Of a stretch of DNA of 45,521 bases, positions 1,427-33,060 are shown piece after piece. Source of the stretch: an uncultured Candidatus Cloacimonadota bacterium (GTDB taxonomy: Bacteria; Cloacimonadota; Cloacimonadia; JGIOTU-2); NCBI GenBank assembly GCA_964447485.1, contig CAYUTH010000002.1, forward strand, positions 1 to 45,521, in the 5' to 3' direction. The first letter of the stretch is position 1; the number at the start of each line of letters is the position of its first letter. A program made the position numbers and the translations under genes. The notes beneath the pieces are model-generated. The model searched no databases and was not told where the DNA came from. It saw nothing but the letters and a program-made list of their open reading frames with translations.

Positions 1427-2016
1427 TTATAAAACGAGAGATATTACAGAAAATTATCATGCAAAAGTGAAAAATGTCTATCGTGAGAACGAGGGGGCTC
1501 TTCTGCTCGTAATACAGGGTCATAAAATCCTCCAATGAATATATTGCCTTTTTGGATGCAGATGACGTCTGGTTGCCTGAGAAACTTGAAAAGCAGTTAT
1601 TATAATTTAAAAATAACCCTGACATCGAATTTGTTTCCTGTGATAATTATTTCATTGATAAAAGCGAGACTATCATTAACAGTTATGTCCGTAAAGTTAA
1701 ATTTGTCGAAGGAGATATTTTATTAGATTTCTTCATGGATTTTTTTCTTATTACGTCCGGTATTATGCTTAGAAGGTCGTGCTTGCAAAAAACCGGGCTC
1801 TTTGATGAGAATCTTCAGGTTGGTGAAGATATTGAGTTCTTTCTTCGGCTCGCTCAACGCTATCCTGCCGGTGTTGTGAAAGAAAAATTGTTCAAACGAA
1901 GAGTGTGTAAAGGGTAGAGTCTCAAAATTTCTATCATTAAAAAAAACACACATACAACAATATAGGTTTAGCACAAATCTTGAAAAATATTTCAATTTCC
2001 CATCTGCATTATTCAC
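1427..2016 (+). pseudogene. Family-2 glycosyltransferase pseudogene, paralogue of CDS 5135-6127, 5'-truncated by the IS3 element
   Basis: It is colinear at the nucleotide level with 5290-5900. For example, [33 protein letters not shown]... aligns with [34 protein letters not shown]..., and FFMDFFLITSGIMLRRSCLQKTGLFDENLQVGEDIEFFLRLA with FFMDFFLITSAIIIKRSCIQKVGLFNENLQVGEDFEFFLRLA. There is a frameshift after ARNTG, an in-frame TAA, a premature TAG at 1915-1917, and decayed similarity to about 2016. Confidence 0.8.
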
Positions 2017-2034
2017 TTGAAAATTCGTCCCTTT

Positions 2035-3348
2035 TTAGTCAACGATTTTAATAAATATTTTAATCTTTATCTCAGTATATAATGCATATATTGCAGCAAC
2101 AATTATCAATATATCGGTTGGAACAGATAATCTTGGACTTGGACTTTCTATTAATGCATGAATAACGGATGAACTTATTGCGGATATGTATAAAATTAGA
2201 AAAAAGAATTTATCCATTATAGATAAATCTATTTTCTTTTTTTGGAAGAAATACAGTATTGGAAAAAGAAAAAATATAAATTGAATAAGAAAAAATAAAT
2301 ATTTTTCAAAATACTCGTAAAAAAAATGAGGAATAAATTCAAAATCGCTCCATATATCTTGATCCCAGAAAAAAATCCAGCTATGAAACACGTTTTTTAA
2401 ATACTTATTGGGTTGTAGCATAACGGTTTCAATAAACATTTGTTGGAATATTTTTGATAATTGAGCAAATGATAGACTATCCCTTTCTCTCATTTCTTTT
2501 TCTATATGCCAAATAGTATTATAATGATCTCCTTTTCCTAATATCTCTTTTTTTCTTTGTTCAATATACATTTTTTTATAATAATCGTATTTATCCGGTG
2601 CATCCCCAATAAAATTACGTATTTGTTGTGATAGATGCAAACCAGTAGCTGTACTTAAACTAAAAGTGTCATGATAATGTAAATTAATTAAACACCAACC
2701 ACCTAACAAAATTATTACAGGTAAAATAAAGCATAATAAACTTCTAATTATTTTTTTTATTAATATTTTTTGTCTTTCTAAATATATTAGTAAAAAGAAA
2801 AATAAAATAAAAATTATTATAATAAATTGTGGTTTGGTTAATGCTAACAAACTTGCACATAAACCCAATAATAAAGAAAAAATAATTTTATTAGGTTCTT
2901 CAAAAACTTTTAATAACAATAGGAAAATACTCGAAATAAAAAAAACTGAAAGGGTTTCGGTCAATATTGCTGTTTCCCATATCAAAAAAGGATAACAAAT
3001 AATATACAAAATACCACTAATAAATGCAAAAATATTATTCTGTGTTAGTTTGTATATAATTACAAAAAGGTTTACTGATATGAGTAACCCTAATATCAGC
3101 TGAAATAACATAATTATGTTATTATTAAAACTGGCAAGAATAATTAAAAACGGATACCCAGGTGCTCTTAAACCACAATAATTTGATAAATTTATTTCTT
3201 TAATAAATTCTGCTAGCTTAAAATATGAATGGGAATCTGCTGTAATCTGAGGTTCAACAAAAATATAAATTACTATGCGAATAATAATTGATATGGATAT
3301 TAAACCTAATAAGTATCTACTAGTATGTGAGTTTTTATTTTTTAACAT
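2035..3348 (-). CDS. Polytopic membrane protein, putative GT-C fold glycosyltransferase (ArnT/PMT-like)
   Basis: 437 aa with about 11-12 hydrophobic helices. The first loop has acidic/aromatic residues (ITADSHSYFK) and an LRAPGYPFLI motif like the R.PGYP block of GT39/GT83 enzymes. It sits in a polysaccharide context. The family call comes from motif memory only. Confidence 0.55.
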   Translation of the reverse strand: MLKNKNSHTSRYLLGLISISIIIRIVIYIFVEPQITADSHSYFKLAEFIKEINLSNYCGLRAPGYPFLIILASFNNNIIMLFQLILGLLISVNLFVIIYKLTQNNIFAFISGILYIICYPFLIWETAILTETLSVFFISSIFLLLLKVFEEPNKIIFSLLLGLCASLLALTKPQFIIIIFILFFFLLIYLERQKILIKKIIRSLLCFILPVIILLGGWCLINLHYHDTFSLSTATGLHLSQQIRNFIGDAPDKYDYYKKMYIEQRKKEILGKGDHYNTIWHIEKEMRERDSLSFAQLSKIFQQMFIETVMLQPNKYLKNVFHSWIFFWDQDIWSDFEFIPHFFYEYFEKYLFFLIQFIFFLFPILYFFQKKKIDLSIMDKFFFLILYISAISSSVIHALIESPSPRLSVPTDILIIVAAIYALYTEIKIKIFIKIVD

Positions 3349-3373
3349 AATATCAGTGTTTCCTTTTTAAAAT

Positions 3374-3667
3374 TCAATTGATTTTGTTCTGTACAAAGAT
3401 TTTAAGGCTATAAGCTATTCGTTCTTCAAGATAAGAATATTCATATCTAAAAATCAGCAATATTTTATCACTAATTGGTAATGGATTAAATCTGATATGA
3501 TTTTTATTATCCCATGTAGTTATTGGGGAACATCCTTCGTCATAAATTTTTGTAAAACAATCCCTGTTAAATATGTTTAACACTATACTTGTTCCCAATC
3601 TTGAGCAAACGAAAAAAATAATATTTGCTTTGGGTGCAGTGCTCGAAAGCAGGATATTATGATGCAA
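3374..3667 (-). CDS. Hypothetical protein (97 aa), possibly a 5'-truncated remnant
   Basis: The ORF lies 26 nt upstream of, and co-directional with, the 437-aa membrane protein. No motif was recognised. The decayed IS lies just upstream. Confidence 0.3.
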   Translation of the reverse strand: MHHNILLSSTAPKANIIFFVCSRLGTSIVLNIFNRDCFTKIYDEGCSPITTWDNKNHIRFNPLPISDKILLIFRYEYSYLEERIAYSLKIFVQNKIN

Positions 3668-3786
3668 TTTTTTATATGCAAAAAAACTAATTTGACTTTA
3701 CATAAGTATTTTTTTGAAAACTTTTTAATATTTCTCATGAGACTCTTTTTAAAAAATTACATAAAATTGTCAATAAACCAAGATTA

Positions 3787-4950
3787 TTTACTAATCTTTC
3801 CGACTTGAGTTAACCTATTGAAAGACAGGCAGATAGCATAAAGAAACACTTTACAGAAAAACTCCGAAAATTATTATTGTCCCGTAAGTTATGCCTATAA
3901 CTTAAACAATAATAAAACGAGGTTATGTATGTTAAAACATTATAATCAGGTAAAGCTGTCAAGTGTAGGATCGAAAAATGTTTTCGATTTATTTAAAACA
4001 TTCAATTTGAAATCAATCTTATCACAGAGTAAAATAGTAAAACAGAAAGATCACAAAATATCCGAGATGCTTTTTATCTTTCTGGTTATTATCCTTGAGA
4101 ACAGCAACTCGATTTTTAGTGGGATAGTTAAAAATCAAATATCAAATCTCAAAACACCTATCAACGATATGCTTAACAAATCGCATTACGAGACGTTTTT
4201 ATCAACCTTGCTCGGCATCTCGATCTGCTGATTGTTCTCTGATCTTTGACGATACCGGCAAAGTAAAAATCGGTCATAAAACACGAAATATCAGTTGGTT
4301 TTATGATCACAGTAAAAATAAATATTTCAAAGGCTATCAGAATATAACAGCAGCATGGCCTAATGGTAGAACGGCAATACCAATTGAAATCGAGTTGAAA
4401 ATTGGCAAGAAACGTTCAAAACATTCCAGGAGAGTAAACTACCATAGTGGAACTCACACAGAGCAACGAGTACGTTTCGGCAAGAAAAAGAAAACCGATA
4501 TCGTAATCCAGATGATCAAAGTAAGTCTTCCAATTATGCGGCAATGATCGCCGACTTAACCATTCGCTATGTATTCTACACTATGTTTTGTTATCGAAAA
4601 GAGCAGAACAGCTATAAACCCATGGGACAGATTGTAGCTCAGTTTTACCGGTAGTTATTTGATTTGTGTCTGAATACATTTGTTGAAATGATGTTTATAC
4701 AATACGCTAAAGATTTTGTGGATTATGCGATTGAACTTGGTTACTCTAATTTGTATGACCTGAGAAAAAATATCGACAAATTACTTCAGGAATTCTTCGA
4801 ACGAGAAGTGTTTTTAAATAAAATTACCGAATCAGATAATCATAGTTTTAGGAAATCCGCGTAAAAACCTTTAAATAAGTAAGTTCCAAGCATTTCATGA
4901 AAAAACATGCCTTATTTTATAAGGACTTACGCGTCGGAAAGATTAGTTAA
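3787..4950 (+). mobile_element. Decayed insertion sequence bounded by 18-bp terminal inverted repeats
   Basis: The left end TTTACTAATCTTTCCGAC (3787-3804) matches the reverse complement of the right end GTCGGAAAGATTAGTTAA (4933-4950) at 17/18 positions, with a 15-nt perfect core. The interior carries a frameshifted DDE transposase reading frame. Confidence 0.65.
3929..4864 (+). pseudogene. DDE transposase pseudogene (IS4/IS1634-like), broken into at least 3 frames
   Basis: The pieces are MLKHYNQVKLSSVGSKNVFDLFKTF..., then IVLIFDDTGKVKIGHKTRNISWFYDHSKNKYFKGYQNITAAWPNGRTAIPIEIELK (a DDT..K.G block typical of the first catalytic D region), then ...AAMIADLTIRYVFYTMFCYRKEQ... and the 66-aa C-terminal ORF at 4664-4864. 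Stops and frameshifts lie between the pieces. Confidence 0.6.
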
Positions 4951-5134: not shown

Positions 5135-6127
5135 ATGCATGAAAAAATTTTTTATAATATTGACATATTAACAAGCATACTAAGGTTTACCTATATGCCA
5201 AATGTTGATGTGATAATACCTACACATAATTGTATTTTTATTGCAAAGGCAATAGAAAGCGTCATACGTCAAACTCATCAAAACCTACATATTATAATTA
5301 TTGATGATGGCTCAACTGATGATGCAAAGGATACTGTCTATAGATTTCGTAATTTATATCCAGGTAAAATTAACTATTATTATCAACACCAACAAGGACC
5401 TGCTGCTGCTCGTAATACAGGGATTAAAAGATCATCCAATGAATATATAGCTTTCTTGGATGCAGATGATATCTGGCTGCCTGAAAAACTTGAAAAGCAG
5501 TTATTAATATACAAGAAAAACCCCGATATTGGATTCGTTTATTGTGATAACTATTTTATTGATAAAAGCGGGAACATAATTAAAGATTATATACGTAAAG
5601 TCAAATTGGTTGAAGGAAATATTTTATTAGATTTCTTCATGGATTTTTTTCTTATCACTTCCGCAATAATTATCAAAAGATCATGCATTCAAAAGGTAGG
5701 TCTCTTTAATGAAAACCTCCAAGTTGGTGAAGATTTTGAATTCTTCCTCCGATTAGCAAAATATTATACAGCAGGTGTGGTTAGAGAAAAATTATTAAAG
5801 CGTCGGGTATGGGCTAGAAGTTTGAGTAAACGGGATTATGAATTAAATACAAGGATTGACATCGAAACGTTGAAAAAATTTATTTCTGTTCATTCTGCTT
5901 TTAATAATATGCACAGGCAACTGATCATGAAAAGAATGTCTGATATGTATTTTAAATTTGGGTATATGTATCTAGAGCACAAAAAGAATTTAAAAGCTCT
6001 TACTCAATTTACGCTTTCACTTAGATTTTTTCTAAACATTAAGGCCATAAAAGGTTTAATATCTTCCATTCTACCTAAAATATTACTTTCACAATTAAAA
6101 AAACAGAATGATAACTATAGTCGATAA
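5135..6127 (+). CDS. Family-2 glycosyltransferase (GT-A)
   Basis: VDVIIPTHN..., [39 protein letters not shown] (DxD) and VGEDFEFFLR are present. The true start may be the internal Met at 5195 (MPNVDVIIP). Confidence 0.9.
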   Translation: MHEKIFYNIDILTSILRFTYMPNVDVIIPTHNCIFIAKAIESVIRQTHQNLHIIIIDDGSTDDAKDTVYRFRNLYPGKINYYYQHQQGPAAARNTGIKRSSNEYIAFLDADDIWLPEKLEKQLLIYKKNPDIGFVYCDNYFIDKSGNIIKDYIRKVKLVEGNILLDFFMDFFLITSAIIIKRSCIQKVGLFNENLQVGEDFEFFLRLAKYYTAGVVREKLLKRRVWARSLSKRDYELNTRIDIETLKKFISVHSAFNNMHRQLIMKRMSDMYFKFGYMYLEHKKNLKALTQFTLSLRFFLNIKAIKGLISSILPKILLSQLKKQNDNYSR

Positions 6128-6154
6128 CAATACTATTATTCAATAATACAACAC

Positions 6155-7678
6155 ATGGAATCAGCACTAAAGAATCGCGGCAAAAAACTGCTACAAGGTT
6201 CATTTTTAAGAACTTTTACAGTTTTTTTGCAAATTATAATATCCTTTTTCATGCTTCCCTTTTTAGTTCATAATTTTGGGGATAAAACATACGGTTTATG
6301 GTTATTGATAATGATTTTTGTAGATTACTACACGCTTCTTAGATTGGGTTTCAGCAGTGCAGTAGGCAGATACTTATCTCGTGCTGTTGGACGTGAGGAC
6401 ATTGAGGAAATGTCTATTATAAGTAGTACATCTTTTTTTATATATATATTTATATCCGTCCTTATGATAATTGCAACATTTATATTATATTGTTGCAGTT
6501 CAGCTATCGTCAAAATCCCTGCTGATCTACAATTATTCAAATATTTGATAATTATCTTTGGAATAAGCACTGCCTTGGCCCCACCTTTTAGTGTTTTTAG
6601 AGCAATACTTAATTCCCACATGCAATATAAAATAGTTGAATACGTTAATATTATTCTACTTATTATAAAAAATTCCCTAATATTTCTTTTTATTAAATCG
6701 GGATATGGACTTTTGTCTGTAGCCTGGATATATATATTGTGCAATTTAGGACGAATGATCTTCCTTTATTTCTATAAAAGCATTAAATATAAAAATATAT
6801 TTATTTCATTAAAATATTTTAGGAAAAATAGAGTTAGAACTTTGTTTAGATATTCAATCTATACATTTATTGCACAAATTGCGGAAAAACTACGTTTCAA
6901 GGTTGATACTATAATTATAACTATTTACATCGGGCTTACTGCTGTAACGCATTATAATATTGCTTTGAGTCTAATTGGATACTTTATACTTTTTATCGAA
7001 ACCATTATTAGTGTTTTCCAAAATTATGTAAGTCAACAAGATGGTTTGGAAGATTATGACTCTATTAGAAACAAATTTTTACTCACAACCAAGATCAATA
7101 CTTATTTAAGCATTTTTATTGGATTTTCAATTATTTTTTATGGAAAAAGTTTTATTGAAAAATGGATGGGAGCAAACTATTTAGATTCTTATCCGATACT
7201 TGTCATTTTAACCCTATCTGCAATAATCAACCTTGCGCAACATACCTCAGTGAAGGTATTGTATGGAATCTCAAAAAACAAATTTTATGCCTATTCAAAT
7301 TTTATTGAGGGCATATTGAACGTTTTAATTAGTTTGATTCTGGTAAGAAAATATGGATTGATAGGAATAGCATTGGGAACGACTATTCCTATGTTAATTT
7401 TTTCATTAATAATCCAACCGATATATGTCAATAAAATCTTAGAAAGTAGTATAAAAAAATATTTTTTTTCAATGACTATCAATTTGGGATTGCCAAGTTT
7501 AATTCTTGGTATATTTTTTCTATTCGCTAATCAATATCTTGCTGCATCTTATACAGCAATTGCAATTTTAGCGATTATACAAACAATTTATTTTGTAATA
7601 TTAATATTCTTTTTAGGATTTAAAAAAGATGAAAAAAATTATTTTCAACAATTATTGGCAGACATTATTTCACCCTAA
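6155..7678 (+). CDS. wzx: Wzx-like oligosaccharide flippase (MOP/polysaccharide biosynthesis protein family)
   Basis: 507 aa with about 12-14 TM helices and the typical N-terminus (KKLLQGSFLRTFTVFLQIIISFFMLPFLVHNFGDKTYGLW). It lies in a glycosyltransferase operon. Confidence 0.75.
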   Translation: MESALKNRGKKLLQGSFLRTFTVFLQIIISFFMLPFLVHNFGDKTYGLWLLIMIFVDYYTLLRLGFSSAVGRYLSRAVGREDIEEMSIISSTSFFIYIFISVLMIIATFILYCCSSAIVKIPADLQLFKYLIIIFGISTALAPPFSVFRAILNSHMQYKIVEYVNIILLIIKNSLIFLFIKSGYGLLSVAWIYILCNLGRMIFLYFYKSIKYKNIFISLKYFRKNRVRTLFRYSIYTFIAQIAEKLRFKVDTIIITIYIGLTAVTHYNIALSLIGYFILFIETIISVFQNYVSQQDGLEDYDSIRNKFLLTTKINTYLSIFIGFSIIFYGKSFIEKWMGANYLDSYPILVILTLSAIINLAQHTSVKVLYGISKNKFYAYSNFIEGILNVLISLILVRKYGLIGIALGTTIPMLIFSLIIQPIYVNKILESSIKKYFFSMTINLGLPSLILGIFFLFANQYLAASYTAIAILAIIQTIYFVILIFFLGFKKDEKNYFQQLLADIISP

Positions 7679-7707
7679 CACCTACAGTTGATTATAAAGG
7701 AAACCTA

Positions 7708-9084
7708 ATGAAAAAAATATTAATAATCACAAACGCTTTTCCTCCATATAAATATGTTGGCAGACTTCGAGTAATTCAAACAGCTAAATATCTGCCTAAA
7801 TTTGGTTGGAAGCCCATTGTTTTAGCTCCTACACCTAACTATTTGTGGGTTAAAGATATAAAAACACTAAATGAAATCCCAAAACATTTAAAAGTATATC
7901 GGGCATTTATGCCAATTGGTTTACCAGTTTTGGTAAAAAAACTATCTGATTCTTTTGCAAAAAATAAACATAGTGAATTAAATAAAAAAAATGAAGGGCT
8001 TAAAACAAATAAAAAATCTCTTAATGAATCTTTCTTTAAACACATCTTTATAAACTTTATTAATACAATACATAATTTATCTGTGAAATACTTATATATT
8101 CCAGATTATCATATTATATGGTTACCATTTATGTTATTTAAATCCATTAGAATTATTGAAAACAAAAATATTGATATGATATATTCTTGTTCGCCAGCTA
8201 ATTCGATGCATATATTCGGATTCATTTTAAAAATATTAACAAAAAAATCGTGGATTGCTGACTATAGAGACCTTTGGAGTGATGATCATTTACATCTTTG
8301 GAAAAATAAATATAGAGCAAATGTAGAAAAATACATTGAAAAAAATATTTTACGAAAAAGTGATAAAATTATTGTTACTTCAAAGCCTGCTGCAAGATTT
8401 ATGTTATATAATTTTAAACATATTACTTTTAGTAAAATTCATGTAATCACTAATGGGTATGACAGTGAATGCAATTTAGTTAATAAGAAGTATATTAAAA
8501 AAATAAATTTTTCTCTTGTTTATACTGGTAATATCATGAAATATTCAAAATCGAATCTTTTAATGGCCATAGGACAACTATTAAATCAATATCGGGAATT
8601 AAAGAACAATTTAAGAGTGTTTTTTATTGGTAATATTGATTATGAAGAAAAAACAGAAATGGAAAATACTATTATTAGTTTTGCTATGCAAAAAAATTTT
8701 ATTTTTAAGGATTGGGTCAATTACAAAAAGTTGTTAAAAATCCAACGGTCAGCTGATCTTTTGTTACTTATTAAAGGAAGTAAAAGAAATACTGAAGTTG
8801 TGATACCCGGAAAAATATTTGAATACATTATCTCAGGACGACCAATATTAGCATTAGTTCCGGATGGAGCAGCGAGAGATTTGATAATGGAAACAAATAC
8901 AGGAATCTGTGTATATCCAAATGATGTTGAAGGAATTAAAAATGCCATTCTAGCTTTATATCATAAATGGGAAAACAATCAATTAAAAATTGAACCGAAT
9001 TATGAAGCTATAAAAAAATATGACCGGAAAAATCTAACAAAAAAATTAGCTGCTATTCTTGATGAAACTTTAAATAAAAAATGA
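7708..9084 (+). CDS. GT-B glycosyltransferase, family 4-like
   Basis: The N-terminus is MKKILIITNAFPPYKYVGRLRV. DYRDLWSDD and the C-terminal nucleotide-sugar domain block IPGKIFEYIISGRPILAL are present. Confidence 0.7.
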   Translation: MKKILIITNAFPPYKYVGRLRVIQTAKYLPKFGWKPIVLAPTPNYLWVKDIKTLNEIPKHLKVYRAFMPIGLPVLVKKLSDSFAKNKHSELNKKNEGLKTNKKSLNESFFKHIFINFINTIHNLSVKYLYIPDYHIIWLPFMLFKSIRIIENKNIDMIYSCSPANSMHIFGFILKILTKKSWIADYRDLWSDDHLHLWKNKYRANVEKYIEKNILRKSDKIIVTSKPAARFMLYNFKHITFSKIHVITNGYDSECNLVNKKYIKKINFSLVYTGNIMKYSKSNLLMAIGQLLNQYRELKNNLRVFFIGNIDYEEKTEMENTIISFAMQKNFIFKDWVNYKKLLKIQRSADLLLLIKGSKRNTEVVIPGKIFEYIISGRPILALVPDGAARDLIMETNTGICVYPNDVEGIKNAILALYHKWENNQLKIEPNYEAIKKYDRKNLTKKLAAILDETLNKK

Positions 9085-11240
9085 TGAAGAAGCAAGAGCA
9101 ACCCAAATTACTTTTAATCGCTCCATATTTCTACCCTCGCAATTACGGTGGGGCAGTAAAAATTTATCATGATCTAATGAGATCATTGCAAAATTTTAAT
9201 ATTGCTATCTTGTCAGAAAGTCAAGGGGTAGAACAAAATAAAATTACTAACTTTGATAATACTTCCTATAAAAAATTTAATTATTCAATGACAAGAATGA
9301 AAAAGCTTATTCTACATTTCACTTCATCAAACAGAATACTGTACATTTTTGAGATTATCTTTTTCGTTTTTTCTTCTATTATACAATTTTATAAAATCAT
9401 CAAAGGCATTAAACCCGATATCATTATTTGTGGAGATACATTTAATTGTGGTTGGCTCATTCAAATTGTTTCTAATAAAATAACAATAATAAATTATATT
9501 CATGGAGAAGAAATCACTCAAGAAACTAAAAGAGGTGGGTTTGTAAATTTTTTAAAACGATACCAGAAAATAGCTATTAATAAAGCTAATTTGAATATTG
9601 TCCCCAGTTCTTTCACGAAAGAAGTAATCAGAAAGTTTTCTAATGTAAAACCAAATAAAATATTAATCCTACCAAACTTCATTGACACTAAAATATTCTA
9701 TCCTTTAAAAAATCGGGAAAAAATAAGAAACGAATTATCGTGGTCAGATAAGATCATTCTATTAACAATTGCCCGATTAGTTCCCAGAAAAGGTGTAGAC
9801 AAAGTCCTTCTGGCACTAAATAGAAAACAGCGAAATGGGGAACTGCCAAACAATTGGAAATATATTATTGGTGGAGAAGGAAAAGAAAAAGAAAACCTCC
9901 AAGCCCTTTGCAAACAATTAAATTTGGAAAATCATGTTGATTTTATTGGTTTTGTAGACGATAAAAGAATCAGAGAATTGTATGGTGCTGCTGATGTTTT
10001 TATTATGGCTAATAGGGAAATTCATGGTGATACGGAAGGTTTTGGAATAGTCTTTCTGGAAGCGAACGCTTGCGGCACACCCGTAATTGGAGGTATTGCC
10101 GGAGGTACAAAAGATGCCATAAAAGATAAAATTACCGGATTGCGAATTGATGGTAATGATGTAAATGAAATTGGTGATGCAATTTTAAATTTACTGAATC
10201 ATGAAAAAACAAGAAAATTTATGGGGAATCAGGGACTTAAAAATGTAATAAAAAATCATAGTATAAAAACTGCTTCAAACAAATTAAATGTTATTCTGTT
10301 TCTTTTAAATAAAAGAAAATATCCTTCGTTAAATACCTTCAATAATATGAAATTAACAGTAAGTATTATCATCCCAACCTATAATATGGCAAAATATCTA
10401 CCTAACGCTATTGATAGTGTATTGGCTCAAACATATAAAAATTATGAGATTATTGTAATAGATGATGGCTCTACAGATAACACAAGAATAATTCTCAACA
10501 AATATAAGGATAAAATCAAATATGTATATCAAAAGAACAAAGGACTTGCTTGCGCTCGTAATACTGGACTAAAATATTCAACGGGTAGATACATTGCTTT
10601 ATTGGATGCTGATGATTTGTGGCTTCCGAACAGGCTCTCCGAAGAAGTCCCAATACTTGATAACAATCCCAAAATTGGACTTGTACACGCTAATGCTATT
10701 GATATTGATGAGGAAGGAAATACACTCGGGCTTACTACACAATCACCAAGATTGAGAAAAAAGAATATGGCGTTGAACCTTCTTTTAAGAAAAGAACACA
10801 TTCTCTGTCTGACAGTTCTTTTTAGAAAAGACTGCCTTAAATATGTTGGAATGTTTGATGAAAACTTGACATGGCTGGGAGTAGAGGATAGAGATCTTTG
10901 GGTTCGTATCGCTCAACATTTCAGAATAGAATATATTGATAAACCTCTCGCATTACATCGCATTCGTTCTGATGCAATGAGCAGAAATATAGAGAATATG
11001 ATGAAAGCACGTTATTACGTCGTTGATAAATACAACCCAAGATCCTCTTGCTTGAGCTTTATGAGAAGACAAATGTTGAGTGCTATTCATTTTGAAGTTG
11101 CAGACGGTCTTTCGTGGCGTGGTGAACCAAGAAAATCTCTAAAACAATACTGGAAAGCCCTAAAATTTTACCCCTTCAATATTATAATCTATATCAATTT
11201 TCTGAAAGCAATTATAAAGACAATATTTAATGTTTCTTAA
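9081..11240 (+). CDS. Two-domain glycosyltransferase: N-terminal GT4 (GT-B) fused to C-terminal GT2 (GT-A)
   Basis: Residues 1 to about 400 carry GDTEGFGIVFLEANACGTPVIGG (the EX7E region of GT4). Residues from about 423 carry VSIIIPTYNMAKYLPNAIDSVLAQTYKNYEIIVIDDGSTDNT and ARNTGLKYSTGRYIALLDADDLWLPNRL. This is a single uninterrupted 719-codon ORF. Its ATGATG start overlaps the preceding stop. Confidence 0.85.
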   Translation: MMKKQEQPKLLLIAPYFYPRNYGGAVKIYHDLMRSLQNFNIAILSESQGVEQNKITNFDNTSYKKFNYSMTRMKKLILHFTSSNRILYIFEIIFFVFSSIIQFYKIIKGIKPDIIICGDTFNCGWLIQIVSNKITIINYIHGEEITQETKRGGFVNFLKRYQKIAINKANLNIVPSSFTKEVIRKFSNVKPNKILILPNFIDTKIFYPLKNREKIRNELSWSDKIILLTIARLVPRKGVDKVLLALNRKQRNGELPNNWKYIIGGEGKEKENLQALCKQLNLENHVDFIGFVDDKRIRELYGAADVFIMANREIHGDTEGFGIVFLEANACGTPVIGGIAGGTKDAIKDKITGLRIDGNDVNEIGDAILNLLNHEKTRKFMGNQGLKNVIKNHSIKTASNKLNVILFLLNKRKYPSLNTFNNMKLTVSIIIPTYNMAKYLPNAIDSVLAQTYKNYEIIVIDDGSTDNTRIILNKYKDKIKYVYQKNKGLACARNTGLKYSTGRYIALLDADDLWLPNRLSEEVPILDNNPKIGLVHANAIDIDEEGNTLGLTTQSPRLRKKNMALNLLLRKEHILCLTVLFRKDCLKYVGMFDENLTWLGVEDRDLWVRIAQHFRIEYIDKPLALHRIRSDAMSRNIENMMKARYYVVDKYNPRSSCLSFMRRQMLSAIHFEVADGLSWRGEPRKSLKQYWKALKFYPFNIIIYINFLKAIIKTIFNVS

Positions 11241-29276: not shown

Positions 29277-29397
29277 TATGGCTCCCTGTTTATTCCTTGT
29301 AATGGCATGGTTAGAATAAAGATTTTTTTTTCCATATGTTTGTCAAATTTTGTATGCATTTTCTTGACATTCATGTTCATTCTATCAGAAAAAAATT

Positions 29398-29742
29398 ATG
29401 AGAATCGATAGTTACCAGTTCGGAAAGATGGTCATAGACGGAATTCCGTACACACATGATGTGATCATACACAATAATTATGTGCAGTCAGATTGGTGGA
29501 GAAAGCGTTCGCATCATTTGATACTTGCAGATATTCCCAGCCTGCTATTTGAAAAACCGGATGTGCTCGTTGTCGGCACAGGCAAATTCGGCTTGATGAA
29601 AATTGATAAAGAAGTGATCAGGTATTGTGATAAACATGGCATCGAGCTTATTTGGAAAGATACATCCAGTGCCGTAGATGCTTATAATGATTTGCAGGAT
29701 TCCGGAAAACACTTCATCGCCGCATTCCATTTGACGTGCTGA
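29398..29742 (+). CDS. Mth938-like domain protein (DUF498 family)
   Basis: 114 aa. Matching blocks are IDSYQFGKMVIDGIPYTHDVII, PDVLVVGTGKFGLMKI and GIELIWKDTSSAVDAYNDL. Confidence 0.65.
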   Translation: MRIDSYQFGKMVIDGIPYTHDVIIHNNYVQSDWWRKRSHHLILADIPSLLFEKPDVLVVGTGKFGLMKIDKEVIRYCDKHGIELIWKDTSSAVDAYNDLQDSGKHFIAAFHLTC

Positions 29743-29743
29743 G
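29716..29743 (+). repeat. Direct repeat copy 1 (att-like), the last 8 codons plus stop of the Mth938-like gene
   Basis: ATCGCCGCATTCCATTTGACGTGCTGAG is identical at 27/28 positions to 31618-31645. Confidence 0.9.
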
Positions 29744-29855
29744 TACATATAGCACAAACAACAGATATTTGTTGACACATATAGGGAAAAAAATCTTTTT
29801 AAAATCATTAATGGATTGATCTTGGTACAGACGTTTTAAATTAAATTAATAAACA

Positions 29856-29867
29856 TAAAACGTTTTA
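29856..29867. promoter_or_regulatory. Perfect 12-bp palindrome TAAAACGTTTTA upstream of the cassette (candidate operator)
   Basis: It is self-complementary. The half-site ACGTTTTA also occurs at 29831-29838. It lies 33 nt upstream of the ATG at 29900. Confidence 0.3.
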
Positions 29868-29899
29868 ACTGATCCGTTAATATATCTAGTGTGATTAGA

Positions 29900-30787
29900 A
29901 TGAAATTAATTTATAGAAAACGAGTTTTATTGGCAATAATTCAATCCTTCGGAGGTGAACTAGGAGTAACACATTTTCAAAAATTATTATTCTTATTTAA
30001 TCAAAGACAGAAAAAAAAAACTTACAATTTTGTACCAAATAGATCCGGATGTTTTTCATTTCAGGCAGTTGCTGATAAATCACGATTGATGAAAGACGGA
30101 TTTCTTGAAAATGTTAAACAATGGAAAACTATTTCGTGTGAAACGAATTTCTCATCATCTTTAACTGATTTTGACAGGAAAGAGCTCGGTAAATTAAGAA
30201 TCAAATACGAAAATCTTACAACAAAAGAATTAATACGAGAAATTTATTTAACTTATCCTTATTATGCAATTAACAGCGAGATTGCCGAAAAACACCTTAA
30301 TGAAGAAGAGAGAGAAGCAATATATAGACTGAAACCAAACGATTTCAAAACAATGCTTTTTACAATTGGTTACGAGGGAAAATCATTAGAAAATTATTTG
30401 AATCATTTAATACAAAACAACATAAAAGTGCTATGCGATGTAAGAAAGAATCCAATCAGTATGAAATATGGATTTGCAAAAAAAACATTACAAAATGCTT
30501 GTGAGGTGTTGAATATAAAATATATACATTTCCCCGAATTAGGTATTGAATCAAGAAAAAGAATAAACCTAAAAACACAAGCAGATTACGATTCATTATT
30601 TTTTGATTATGAAAAGACGGTATTGAGCAAACAGACTGAACAAATTAATACAATAGTGGATTTGCTCGATAATTACAATCGTGTTGCACTGACATGTTTC
30701 GAATACTCTCCCCAACAATGCCATCGTACAAGAGTTGCAAATGCCGTAATTAACTCATCTCCTGAATGCTCATTAGAACACTTATAA
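29900..30787 (+). CDS. Two-domain protein: unassigned N-terminal domain (about 150 aa) fused to a C-terminal DUF488 domain
   Basis: The C-terminal half has TIGYEGKSLENYLNHLIQNNIKVLCDVRKNPISMKYGFAKKTLQNACEVLNIKYIHFPELGI ... VALTCFEYSPQQCHRTRVANAV, the hallmark DUF488 blocks (TIGHS, VDVR, F.K..L, LG, C.E....CHR). An alternative GTG start lies at 29891. Confidence 0.7.
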   Translation: MKLIYRKRVLLAIIQSFGGELGVTHFQKLLFLFNQRQKKKTYNFVPNRSGCFSFQAVADKSRLMKDGFLENVKQWKTISCETNFSSSLTDFDRKELGKLRIKYENLTTKELIREIYLTYPYYAINSEIAEKHLNEEEREAIYRLKPNDFKTMLFTIGYEGKSLENYLNHLIQNNIKVLCDVRKNPISMKYGFAKKTLQNACEVLNIKYIHFPELGIESRKRINLKTQADYDSLFFDYEKTVLSKQTEQINTIVDLLDNYNRVALTCFEYSPQQCHRTRVANAVINSSPECSLEHL

Positions 30788-31602
30788 TGACCAAGAAAAA
30801 AATACTTGTTACAGTCAAAACCTATCCAACAATTTCAAAAAAATATGACGAATTAGTATGCACTGCAGGTTTTGATGAAGATGGTAATTGGATTAGAATT
30901 TACCCTATCCCATTTAGGAAACTTGATTATGTTCATCAATATAAAAAATATCAATGGATTGAAATGGATTTAATAAGGAACAAGAGTGATTTTCGCCCTG
31001 AAAGTTATAGTCCGAGAAACATAGATGCTGCTGATGTGATTACTTTTCATGATAAGTTGGGAACAGAAGAAAACTGGGCTGAGAGAAAAAAAATTATCCT
31101 CAGAAATATATACGATGACATGTCCGCATTAATTGCCGAAGCAAAAACTAAGGGACTATATACCTCCTTAGGAGTTTTTAAACCTGCTGAAATTAAAGAT
31201 TTCGTCTGCAAACCTGTTGAAAAGGAGTGGAGTGAAAAACAAAAAGCAACTCTTGAGCAAGAAAGATTATTTGATAAAAAAAGCACTCATGAGATAGTAA
31301 AAAAGCTCCCATACAAGTTTAGCTACACCTTCTGTGATGTAAATGGAACAGAATCCACATTAATGAATGAAGATTGGGAGATTGGCGCTTTATTCTGGAA
31401 TTGTCTTGAGAAAAACCGCGGTGATGAACATGCCGCTTGCGAGGATGTAAGAAAAAAATATTGGGATGACTTTGCAAAAACTAAGGATTTGTATTTTTTT
31501 CTTGGTACAACTAAACTAAATCATCTTAGAGCTCCAAATCCATTTATTATTATTGGAACATTTCATCCAAAAAAAGACCTGCAATCCAAATTGGAGATTT
31601 AG
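30787..31602 (+). CDS. Hypothetical protein (271 aa), no family recognised; translationally coupled to the DUF488 gene
   Basis: The ATG at 30787 shares a base with the upstream TAA (TAATG). The protein starts MTKKKILVTVKTYPTISKKYDELVCTAGFDEDGNWIRIYPIPFRKL. There is no TM helix or signal peptide. The upstream extension to 30766 is unlikely to be translated. Confidence 0.6.
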   Translation: MTKKKILVTVKTYPTISKKYDELVCTAGFDEDGNWIRIYPIPFRKLDYVHQYKKYQWIEMDLIRNKSDFRPESYSPRNIDAADVITFHDKLGTEENWAERKKIILRNIYDDMSALIAEAKTKGLYTSLGVFKPAEIKDFVCKPVEKEWSEKQKATLEQERLFDKKSTHEIVKKLPYKFSYTFCDVNGTESTLMNEDWEIGALFWNCLEKNRGDEHAACEDVRKKYWDDFAKTKDLYFFLGTTKLNHLRAPNPFIIIGTFHPKKDLQSKLEI

Positions 31603-31617: not shown

Positions 31618-31645
31618 ATCGCTGCATTCCATTTGACGTGCTGAG
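31618..31645 (+). repeat. Direct repeat copy 2 (orphan copy of the Mth938-like gene 3' end)
   Basis: ATCGCTGCATTCCATTTGACGTGCTGAG still reads IAAFHLTC-stop. Weaker similarity to the sequence after copy 1 continues for about 45 nt (ACAAAC...AGATATTT..TTGACA). Confidence 0.9.
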
Positions 31646-31768
31646 CTTGTATATTACAAACCCATCTAAATAGATATTTTTATTGACATCGGATGCAACA
31701 TTTGCTATTTGTAAGTTACTGAAATTGTAAACACTTATAACTCTATAAAGATAAGGCGGAAAAGATAA

Positions 31769-32893
31769 ATGAAAAAAGTATTGATTATTTCTTATTTGAT
31801 TCTTATGCTATTTATTTTAACGAGTTGTGATTTACTCCATCTATTTAGTAATCACTATACCTGCGAACTTTTTAAAGATGCAATCTACTTTATCGATACA
31901 GACGGAAGTAACCTTAGAAAGTTAGTCAGCCTCGATCATATAGAAAGTAATTGTGAAGATGATACAATAGATTTGCTTCCAGGTGCCAGACTACTATTAT
32001 TCACGCCTGATGGCAACAAAATAATTTATTGTACGAATCCTTATGAATCCAATAATAATAGTCTTTATTCTGTAAATTGTGATGGTAGCGATAATACACT
32101 TCTTACAGAAGATTTAAACGTTCTTTACAATTATGGTGGAATATCAATTTCTTGCATAGAATCAAAAATTATATTTATCGGTAATGTTAAGTATTTGAAC
32201 GATAAAAGTGAAAAATTCTCAGATATTTTTATGGTAAATTTGAATGGATCAAATCTGAATAATATAACAAATACTTATGGGATTAATGAAAAAAATCCTC
32301 GCTTCTTACCTAATGGTGAAGACATCATTTATTCTTCAATTAATCATTTGAATGACTTAAAATCGTATTCAATTAATAAATTACATCTTAACAGTGGTTC
32401 TATTGATACACTCGTATTTAATAATGAATATGCCTATAAACATCTTTTATTATCTCAAGAAGGGACCCAAATATATTATGTTGTATATAAAGACAATTCT
32501 TATTCCTTCTTCGCTATGAATTCAACTGGAATACATCAGGTGCAACTATATGAAAATATTCCTTCTATTAACAATACTCCATCCATATCTTCAGATGGTT
32601 TAAAAATTGTATATGTTAGCAATCATAATTTGTGTATTATGAATACAAATGGCTCAGGCATTAATCAAATAGAAACATCATTATACTATCCTTGTTACCC
32701 CACGTTCTCACAAGGAGGAACTAAAATATTATACTCAGGTTCTGCTATTAATGATAGTATTTACATAATAAATATTAACGGATCAAATGAGATGACAATA
32801 CATGAGGGATTTATGCCAGCCCTTTCACCGGATGAGAATAAAATAGCTTTCTCGGGATACTATTTTTATAAGACATATGACTATTGGGAGTAG
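31769..32893 (+). CDS. Lipoprotein with TolB-like/PD40 beta-propeller repeats
   Basis: It has a signal peptide with a lipobox (LFILTSC). Recurrent D/NGS..xxL repeats are present (DGSNLRKL, DGNKIIY, DGSDNTLL, NGSNLNNIT, NGEDIIY, DGLKIVY, NGSGINQI, NGSNEMTI, DENKIAF). Confidence 0.7.
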   Translation: MKKVLIISYLILMLFILTSCDLLHLFSNHYTCELFKDAIYFIDTDGSNLRKLVSLDHIESNCEDDTIDLLPGARLLLFTPDGNKIIYCTNPYESNNNSLYSVNCDGSDNTLLTEDLNVLYNYGGISISCIESKIIFIGNVKYLNDKSEKFSDIFMVNLNGSNLNNITNTYGINEKNPRFLPNGEDIIYSSINHLNDLKSYSINKLHLNSGSIDTLVFNNEYAYKHLLLSQEGTQIYYVVYKDNSYSFFAMNSTGIHQVQLYENIPSINNTPSISSDGLKIVYVSNHNLCIMNTNGSGINQIETSLYYPCYPTFSQGGTKILYSGSAINDSIYIININGSNEMTIHEGFMPALSPDENKIAFSGYYFYKTYDYWE

Positions 32894-33060
32894 AATATAC
32901 ATTATAACTATTAACCTCTACCCGTTTTAATTTTCGGTAATAATTTTTTCGATCAGTTTACTTGAGCGAATCTATCTCATTTTTTTACTCAATTTTCCGA
33001 ATAAAATAAATCCCAAAAATAATTATTGACAACCACATATTTAATTCTCAAATAAGAGTT

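Follow-up and report, generated by a model that had tools for sequence, protein, structure and literature searches.

Here we analyse a two-gene cassette in a 45,521-nucleotide (nt) stretch of DNA from an uncultured Candidatus Cloacimonadota bacterium (contig CAYUTH010000002.1 of GenBank assembly GCA_964447485.1; 'the window' hereafter means this whole stretch). The cassette is a discrete, mobile unit of 1.9 kb. Its two overlapping genes encode a protein with a C-terminal DUF488 domain (protein A, gene 1) and a divergent relative of the DuOB proteins, a family named for a dual oligonucleotide/oligosaccharide-binding (OB) domain (protein B, gene 2). They form an obligate, co-evolving and translationally coupled pair that associates with restriction-modification genes, prophage immunity regions and plasmids, and profile matches place it in PDC-M19, a phage-defence candidate of PADLOC-DB v2 (2023). 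We tentatively favour the view that the pair is a conflict module acting on single-stranded DNA (ssDNA) or DNA ends, with the DUF488 enzyme and the DuOB-like protein as its core, because this is the simplest reading that covers all versions of its layout.

The match to PDC-M19 spans both proteins almost end to end. Protein A aligns with the PDC-M19A profile (PDLC04505) at an E value of 7.1e-113, residues 4-293 covering profile positions 2-292 of 294, and protein B aligns with PDC-M19B (PDLC04508) at E 5.7e-121 (residues 1-269 on positions 1-268 of 269). Gene order, adjacency and co-direction are the same, as is the embedding of pairs in type I restriction-modification loci; there is no structural difference, although the window copy lies in a Cloacimonadota housekeeping locus and not in a defence island. 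A preliminary description of this DNA had presented the pair as a candidate undescribed system and gene 2 as a protein that could not be placed. Neither view can be kept, because the pair was already catalogued as PDC-M19. The Pfam families DUF488-N3a and DuOB cover both core domains, and gene 2 corresponds to PDC-M19B, to phrog_25907 (E 5e-71) and, remotely, to DuOB. Protein A matches phrog_14939 (E 4e-64), and both PHROG families are listed without an assigned function. PADLOC candidates arise from a guilt-by-embedding screen, and the few that have been tested do not include PDC-M19 (PMC12881386). The literature searched held no paper that names PDC-M19 and no relevant paper on DuOB.

Genes and protein domains

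The genes and their domains are laid out as follows.

29900-30787, forward strand: gene 1 (PDC-M19A), from ATG at 29900 to stop codon TAA at 30785-30787; 295 amino acids (aa).
29900-30343, forward strand: N-terminal domain of gene 1, about aa 1-148, mostly helical in the model, with a likeness to Panacea and to the DarG C-terminal domain.
30347-30787, forward strand: C-terminal DUF488 domain (PF04343) of gene 1 and its stop codon, with an intact C266/E268/C274/H275/R276 loop.
30787-31602, forward strand: gene 2 (PDC-M19B), from ATG at 30787 to a stop codon at 31600-31602; 271 aa; divergent DuOB-like protein with a predicted OB barrel at its N terminus (about aa 1-90), then a beta-rich second domain that has helical inserts (about aa 125-260).

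The two open reading frames (ORFs) have the coordinates first reported for them and meet in the sequence TAATG (30785-30789), an overlap of 1 nt. Gene 1 has an alternative GTG start at 29891. A longer gene 2 ORF from 30766 was rejected because the homologues of gene 2 all start with M-x-K-x-K-(I/V)-L. Homologous clusters at 90 % identity number about 6,400 for gene 1 and about 7,000 for gene 2, and both are real genes under strong constraint, not chance ORFs.

The DUF488 domain that had been recognised by eye in the C-terminal half of gene 1 stands out clearly in profile searches, with residues 163-282 matching PF04343 at E 1.2e-23 and 84.5 bits (Pfam cut-off 22.2). The motifs quoted for it, TIGYEGKS, VLCDVRKNP, PELGI and the cysteine-rich C-x-E-x5-C-H-R, are present and invariant in 40 aligned homologues, although the last has five residues before its second cysteine and not the four initially given. 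The residues invariant across this alignment are G157, Y158, E159, G160, D180, V181, R182, C266, E268, C274, H275 and R276. All 40 homologues also match DUF488-N3a (PF22751, 'active DUF488-N3 subclade') at E ≤ 1, the best at 2.1e-7, and the window protein scores 19.2 bits (E 0.0016) against a threshold of 27 bits. A Pfam scan of gene 1 finds DUF488 alone, and no macrodomain. In the AlphaFold model of protein A (mean predicted local distance difference test (pLDDT) score 93), the C-terminal half resembles protein tyrosine phosphatase-fold cysteine phosphatases, the RNA 5'-phosphatase of human capping enzyme (2c46) and tetrapyrrole-methylase-like folds, as found with Foldseek. From these structural neighbours, the domain is probably a cysteine phosphatase-like member of the rhodanese-phosphatase superfamily. 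Burroughs and Aravind reportedly placed DUF488 in that superfamily in 2023 and defined a RapZ-C/DUF488/DUF4326 clade, the DUF488 branch of which we take to be the pairing of DUF488-N3a with DuOB.

The N-terminal half of protein A had been described as faintly Panacea-like, and this impression has gained some substance. Its top Foldseek match in the PDB is the Mycobacterium tuberculosis DarTG complex (7yk3, chains D and B). Chain D aligns over 173 columns (probability 1.0, E 1.8e-3, template modelling (TM) score normalised to the target 0.49), and the matching chain has 187 residues, a length that fits the DarG C-terminal domain. At the sequence level, positions 180-261 of the NCBIfam DarG model match aa 14-91 weakly (E 0.11), and a profile search of PDB sequences with protein A gave no match to a DarG domain. 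SocA_Panacea (PF13274) is matched below threshold by 13 of the 40 homologues, with a best E of 3.9e-4, and not by the window protein itself. A Panacea-like block, FQKLLFLF followed by a VP...G motif, is present. The GPV tripeptide that is a Panacea signature, and that is critical for neutralisation (PMC8832971), is not found in the window protein, whose family has an invariant P46 and G50-C51-F52. The modelled domain thus resembles both Panacea, of which it is a candidate member, and the DarG C-terminal domain, and we presume that it binds the partner protein.

Protein B has no direct Pfam match, and neither it nor 40 close homologues match DuOB (PF22557, dual OB-containing domain) at E ≤ 1. 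The connection runs through intermediates. DuOB is matched at E 2e-3 by remote homologues that a Gordonia phage and a Sulfolobus plasmid encode, many proteins returned by a search seeded with distant members are flagged PF22557, and all 18 re-scanned proteins of the group in alignment A6 match DuOB (best E 3.5e-8). Because hhalign matches the gene 2 family to this DuOB-positive group (probability 100 %, E 1.8e-56, 253 columns), gene 2 is a divergent branch of the DuOB family. The distant DuOB-like proteins (alignments A5 and A6) share a C-x5-C-x-G-H motif and further invariant cysteines that are absent from the window's clade; the motif looks like a zinc knuckle that this clade has lost.

The AlphaFold model of protein B (pLDDT 85, predicted TM score 0.84) has weak Foldseek neighbours in the PDB (best E 2e-3), namely CTC1 of CST, tandem-OB Teb1-AB, RecO, human single-stranded DNA-binding protein (SSB) and ribosomal protein S12. 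Those in BFVD are baculovirus LEF-3, phage SSBs and the OB domain of DnaE. The top of both lists thus consists mostly of OB-fold proteins that bind ssDNA or ends. The presence of two OB folds is suggested by an N-terminal barrel with OB topology and by top matches that are tandem-OB proteins, at E no better than 2e-3 and TM 0.26-0.33. The aromatic and basic residues that are invariant in the family (Y13, W35, R37, Y39, R44, K54 and W57) would be typical of the nucleic-acid face of an OB fold. A further set of invariant residues is polar (C25, D68, R70, E72, S73, Q158, D196 and E198).

Other identities were considered for protein B. Searches of PDB sequences with single sequences and profiles of both proteins gave no usable match, and hits to colicin E2 (E 0.19), internalin (E 0.81) and MmeI (E 0.47) were taken as chance. 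A match of gene 2 to PqqD (E 0.037) was rejected, being present in 2 of 40 homologues only. The 'ARG and rhodanese-phosphatase-associated protein' ARPP (PMC9503650), compared by description only, shares a conserved cysteine and glutamine with gene 2 but differs in described fold and gene partners, and was likewise set aside. Neither Pfam nor Foldseek matches gene 2 to an ADP-ribosyltransferase family or fold. In a profile search of a representative library with protein B, the best 150 matches were stand-alone proteins of about 270 aa, with no informative fusions among them.

Linkage, layouts and genomic company of the pair

At least 596 bacterial and archaeal species carry a relative of gene 2. 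Surveying one genome per species, we kept 80 loci, 77 of which could be tested for the upstream neighbour. All 77 have a full-length homologue of gene 1 immediately upstream in the same orientation, which answers with an unbroken count the question, raised in the preliminary description, of whether the two genes co-occur; within the window's clade the pairing is obligate. The distance between the genes is -4 to +11 nt in 72 of the 77 loci, in line with the translational coupling that had been read from the overlap. The linkage is also co-evolving, the distance matrices of A and B being correlated with a Mantel r of 0.68, a value reached by 0 of 999 permutations. Mean pairwise identity is 0.64 for B and 0.53 for the whole of A, within which the DUF488 domain (0.61) is better conserved than the N-terminal domain (0.46), the fastest-evolving part. 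Sequence identity stays at 60-70 % across phyla, and we therefore conclude that the pair has spread horizontally.

Beyond the window's clade, the core of a DUF488 gene and a DuOB-like gene is kept and its arrangement varies. Stand-alone DUF488 or DUF488-N3a genes lie upstream of, and overlap, a DuOB-like gene in Nitrospirota, Omnitrophota and another contig, and stand-alone DUF488 genes are convergent with it, with overlapping 3' ends, on plasmids of Streptomyces, Arthrobacter and Rhizobium and in Gordonia phages. One DUF488/DuOB-like pair is interrupted by a transposase. The window shares with these versions the same core pairing; it departs from them in that its protein A falls below the DUF488-N3a cut-off and carries the extra N-terminal domain, and its protein B lacks a direct DuOB match. 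In one lineage only, the Nitrospirota (L087-L090; about 5841-6641 in L087), a gene for a QueC/Asn_synthase-like PP-loop ATPase follows the pair on the same strand, which may be coincidence.

In Sulfolobales, a ParB_N-HTH_ParB-DUF488 fusion of 349 aa, in which HTH is a helix-turn-helix domain, is followed by a DuOB-like gene and an overlapping 165-aa gene without a Pfam match (L185:1133-3555 and L186:1171-3593). The DUF488 and DuOB-like core is that of the window, but the N-terminal module is of the ParB/HTH DNA-clamp type, and the third conserved gene is absent from the window. An archaeal ParB-fold DUF488-HTH fusion binds cytidine triphosphate (bioRxiv 10.1101/2025.10.10.680097). These ParB_N-HTH-DUF488 fusions suggest that DNA is the arena in which the pair works. 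On the Sulfolobus plasmid pSOG2, a DuOB-like gene lacks a DUF488 gene over the preceding 5 kb, and an overlapping 168-aa gene, also without a Pfam match and similar to the Sulfolobales 165-aa gene, comes next (L082:5852-6358). Across the layouts the core stays the same, a cysteine phosphatase-like enzyme with a predicted dual OB-fold partner, and what is fused to the enzyme varies between nothing, a ParB/HTH clamp and the Panacea/DarG-C-terminal-like domain.

The company that the pair keeps fits the general conflict-system reading of the preliminary description. In the 44 loci whose flanks are complete, we scanned the products of the three nearest genes to either side of the pair (264 proteins); the commonest families were N6_Mtase (8), Methylase_S (8), Eco57I-type methylases (7) and HsdR-type domains (5), joined by TIR domains and AbiEii/OLD-like ATPases. 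In a locus-by-locus search seeded with EcoKI HsdM, HsdS and HsdR, 11 of 77 loci had type I restriction-modification genes no more than 4 kb from the pair (10 of the 44 with full flanks); for a random gene we would expect well under 1 %, a rough estimate and not a computed value. Two loci (L068 and L079) show the order hsdR-[A-B]-hsdS-hsdM, in which the pair is embedded and neighbouring genes are 3 to 12 nt apart.

Mobile elements carry it as well. Relatives of gene 2 are found on 23 plasmids, 11 of them conjugative and including Sulfolobus conjugative plasmids, and plasmid-borne pairs lie near ssb and toprim genes. In the Gordonia phage Nymphadora (NC_031061.1; L081 4024-6271), the DUF488 gene gp42 and the DuOB-like gp43 lie between the immunity repressor gene gp44 and the integrase gene, a region that in temperate actinobacteriophage genomes often holds prophage-encoded defence genes. 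The product of gp42, annotated as 'HipA toxin', is a stand-alone DUF488-N3a protein (PF04343, E 1e-29). Because gp43 overlaps the stop codon of gp44, it is probably expressed in lysogens. DUF488 has been reported in prophage and defence-island neighbourhoods (bioRxiv 10.1101/2024.05.24.595836), and on Methanoperedens plasmids a DUF488 gene lies beside RadC, YpsA and UvrD/Dna2-like genes (PMC9674854).

Possible functions of the pair

In the conflict module that we favour, protein B would be the nucleic-acid-recognising subunit, binding exposed ssDNA or DNA ends of an incoming replicon, and the DUF488 domain of A would be a cysteine-dependent enzyme that carries out phosphoryl transfer or hydrolysis at a terminal sugar-phosphate of the nucleic acid. 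The fast-evolving N-terminal domain would tether A to B and, by analogy with DarG, would probably plug the DNA groove of B as an ssDNA mimic until foreign DNA appears. DNA would then be the substrate, the pair would be autoinhibited, and its function would be defence against phages. Some members of the RapZ-C/DUF488/DUF4326 clade have reportedly been predicted, also by Burroughs and Aravind in 2023, to process DNA ends in conflict systems.

Several points weigh against this account. We know of no DUF488 protein with a demonstrated activity, and the literature searched gave no biochemical or phage-challenge result for PDC-M19. The OB-fold reading of B is weak (best Foldseek E 2e-3, TM 0.26-0.33, no direct DuOB match), and the invariant polar residues of B, which the model leaves unexplained, resemble an active site more closely than a simple binding surface. 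Most loci, the window included, have no defence gene adjoining the pair. Panacea and DarG C-terminal domains are, moreover, known from antitoxins, which favours a toxin-antitoxin logic over a cooperating complex.

That logic underlies the main rival, a DarTG- or PanAT-style toxin-antitoxin system acting by abortive infection, which we hold to be possible but doubtful. Protein B would be a growth-arresting effector acting on ssDNA, by binding or by catalysis on a dual-OB scaffold, and A a bifunctional antitoxin whose N-terminal domain sequesters B (type II) and whose DUF488 domain enzymatically reverses the product of B (type IV). DarG is a macrodomain joined to a DarT-binding C-terminal domain, the second domain of DarG2 binding DarT (PMC11825919), and a 2023 study by Deep et al., to go by its title as cited there, has the DarG C-terminal domain inhibiting DarT by ssDNA mimicry. 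The architecture of A parallels that of DarG2, an eraser enzyme with a toxin-binding, ssDNA-mimicking domain. The cassette shares with DarTG2 an enzyme domain and a helical, presumed partner-binding domain in one protein (the nearest solved structure to the latter being the DarG C-terminal domain), a putatively ssDNA-associated partner and a possible phage-defence role. It differs in having neither an ADP-ribosyltransferase nor a macrodomain, in its reversed domain and gene orders and in its enzyme, DUF488; since that enzyme is cysteine phosphatase-like, any chemistry would be phospho-based and not ADP-ribose-based. With PanAT/SocAB (Panacea, DUF4065, PF13274), the cassette has in common the FQKLLFLF...VP...G block and two genes with the antitoxin-like gene first, but window A lacks a PF13274 match and has G-C-F in place of GPV. 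Panacea-type domains are hyperpromiscuous antitoxin domains (PMC8832971), and the main text of that study contains no occurrence of 'DUF488' and does not mention a dual-OB partner. The antitoxin-first order with a 1-nt overlap suits this rival, as does the pattern of conservation, B exceeding A and the putative neutralising domain evolving fastest, as is usual for a toxin and its antitoxin. The invariant Cys, Asp and Glu of B may point to catalysis, and on pSOG2 the gene that overlaps a B without an upstream DUF488 is possibly a swapped partner. Yet no toxin or enzyme fold can be recognised in B, the Panacea-like domain is missing from many versions, some DUF488 genes converge on B from the opposite strand, an arrangement that toxin-antitoxin operons do not usually show, and the ParB-HTH-DUF488 fusions resemble DNA targeting, not toxin sequestration. 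A more specific form, which we regard as unlikely, makes B a new kind of ssDNA-directed effector on a dual-OB scaffold, restrained by an antitoxin that joins an ssDNA-mimicking domain to a cysteine phospho-esterase. This would be a DarTG analogue with phospho-linked DNA modification or DNA-end chemistry.

The pair could instead serve mobile elements, protecting or processing ssDNA or DNA ends, or countering host defences, during plasmid or phage establishment, and have been scattered into chromosomes later. The 23 plasmids and their conjugative subset, the ssb and toprim genes nearby, the temperate Gordonia phages, the two PHROG families and the Methanoperedens plasmid neighbourhood would all be in keeping with such a role. 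We nevertheless consider it quite unlikely, given that embedding in type I restriction-modification loci and the integrase-repressor position are a classical signature of host or prophage defence cargo, and that most of the 80 loci are chromosomal and without other mobile-element genes. An ordinary accessory role outside genetic conflict, in repair or in the metabolism of nucleic acids or nucleotides, appears highly improbable. It could appeal to the housekeeping context in the window (recA, recX, thpR and rpoN) and to DUF488 proteins such as Escherichia coli YeaO, which are widespread as single genes without a known role. It is opposed by a patchy distribution with empty sites in the closest relatives, by the repeat-flanked insertion, by the level of identity across phyla and by the enrichment beside restriction-modification genes, and a conserved core-genome position across a phylum is not seen.

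DUF488 is a very large family, which includes YeaO, and in the window's clade the DuOB-like partner is obligate. What the cassette contributes is a compact version in two genes, which combines a putative domain for partner binding with a cysteine phosphatase-like enzyme and a predicted dual OB-fold protein, and which has defined insertion boundaries and natural empty sites. Two small soluble proteins thereby suffice for direct tests of the role of DUF488. Should the pair defend against phages, the sensing or processing of ssDNA or DNA ends with neither a nuclease nor a nucleoside triphosphatase would join the known defence mechanisms; if the DarTG-like reading with phospho-chemistry is true, it would give the DUF488 family its first biochemical function.

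The insertion site in the window and its relatives

That the cassette was inserted between housekeeping genes had been suggested from gene content, and is borne out by direct repeats that flank it and by empty sites in relatives. On one side lie recX, recA, thpR, the adenosine kinase gene and a DUF498 gene, and on the other a gene for a PD40 lipoprotein and rpoN. The boundaries of the cassette are the following.

29716-29759, forward strand: left direct repeat, att-like, 44 nt, overlapping the 3' end of the DUF498 gene (...AAFHLTC*).
29760-29899, forward strand: upstream non-coding leader of the cassette, presumed to hold the promoter, with TTGACA at 29772-29777.
31618-31661, forward strand: right direct repeat, att-like, 44 nt, a relic of the DUF498 3' end soon after the gene 2 stop.

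The two 44-nt repeats are 84 % identical, share an exact 22-nt core, GCATTCCATTTGACGTGCTGAG (left copy at 29722-29743), and bracket the cassette exactly, with 0 matches expected by chance. They define it as a discrete insertion of 1.9 kb. Inside there is no recombinase, and its mobilisation would therefore need one acting in trans. Metagenome contigs scanned for exact matches to the 22-nt core contained none, and an exact look-up of the protein encoded by the neighbouring DUF498 gene returned the same population only, all with the cassette; empty sites were found only by using a related protein, encoded by the adjacent adenosine kinase gene, as anchor. The relatives located in this way, with identities to the window proteins, were as follows.

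L099 and L100: adenosine kinase 97 %, RecA 96 %; only the PD40 gene between DUF498 and rpoN, an empty site; one repeat copy.
L103 and L104: adenosine kinase 92 %, RecA 93 %; nothing between DUF498 and rpoN; one repeat copy.
L108: gene 1 77 %, gene 2 90 %; cassette present, PD40 gene absent; two repeat copies, 1,903 nt apart.
L101: gene 1 58 %; a divergent gene 1 at the site, the contig ending within the gene; one repeat copy seen.
L105 and L110: adenosine kinase 90-91 %, RecA 92 %; unrelated cargo; one repeat copy.

Collinearity between the window and L108 extends exactly as far as 31645. The segment that follows in the window (31646-33001, GC content 0.29), which encodes the PD40 (TolB-like beta-propeller) lipoprotein, is missing from L108 as it is from L103 and L104, and stands alone in L099 and L100. 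Because the cassette, the PD40 gene and other cargo vary at this site among relatives, the gap between DUF498 and rpoN is a variable, multi-cargo hotspot in this lineage. The unrelated cargo in L110 (1100-5535) and L105 (1958-5535) amounts to 3.5-4.4 kb; in L110 it comprises a receiver-domain protein, a small coiled-coil protein and a large secreted protein, labels given by reading the translations.

The low GC content that had been taken as part of the module's signature is real relative to the flanking core genes (0.39-0.47), gene 1 having 0.30 and gene 2 0.34, but is less distinctive against the window mean of 0.356 and the 0.29 of the PD40 gene. We down-weighted it as a sign of foreign origin because GC content in the window ranges from 0.245 to 0.448. 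Very low values (0.245-0.29) also occur at 2001-4000 and 6001-10000 of the window.

A scan for consensus promoters and terminators found sites no more numerous than in shuffled sequence. A 30-nt inverted repeat, 80 % complementary (TTGACA...ATAT.GG.AAAAAAATCTTT), has one copy at 29317-29346, within the divergent promoter region that precedes DUF498, and the other at 29772-29801, where the cassette begins on its left side. A promoter-like element may have been reused here, or the repeat may have arisen by chance.

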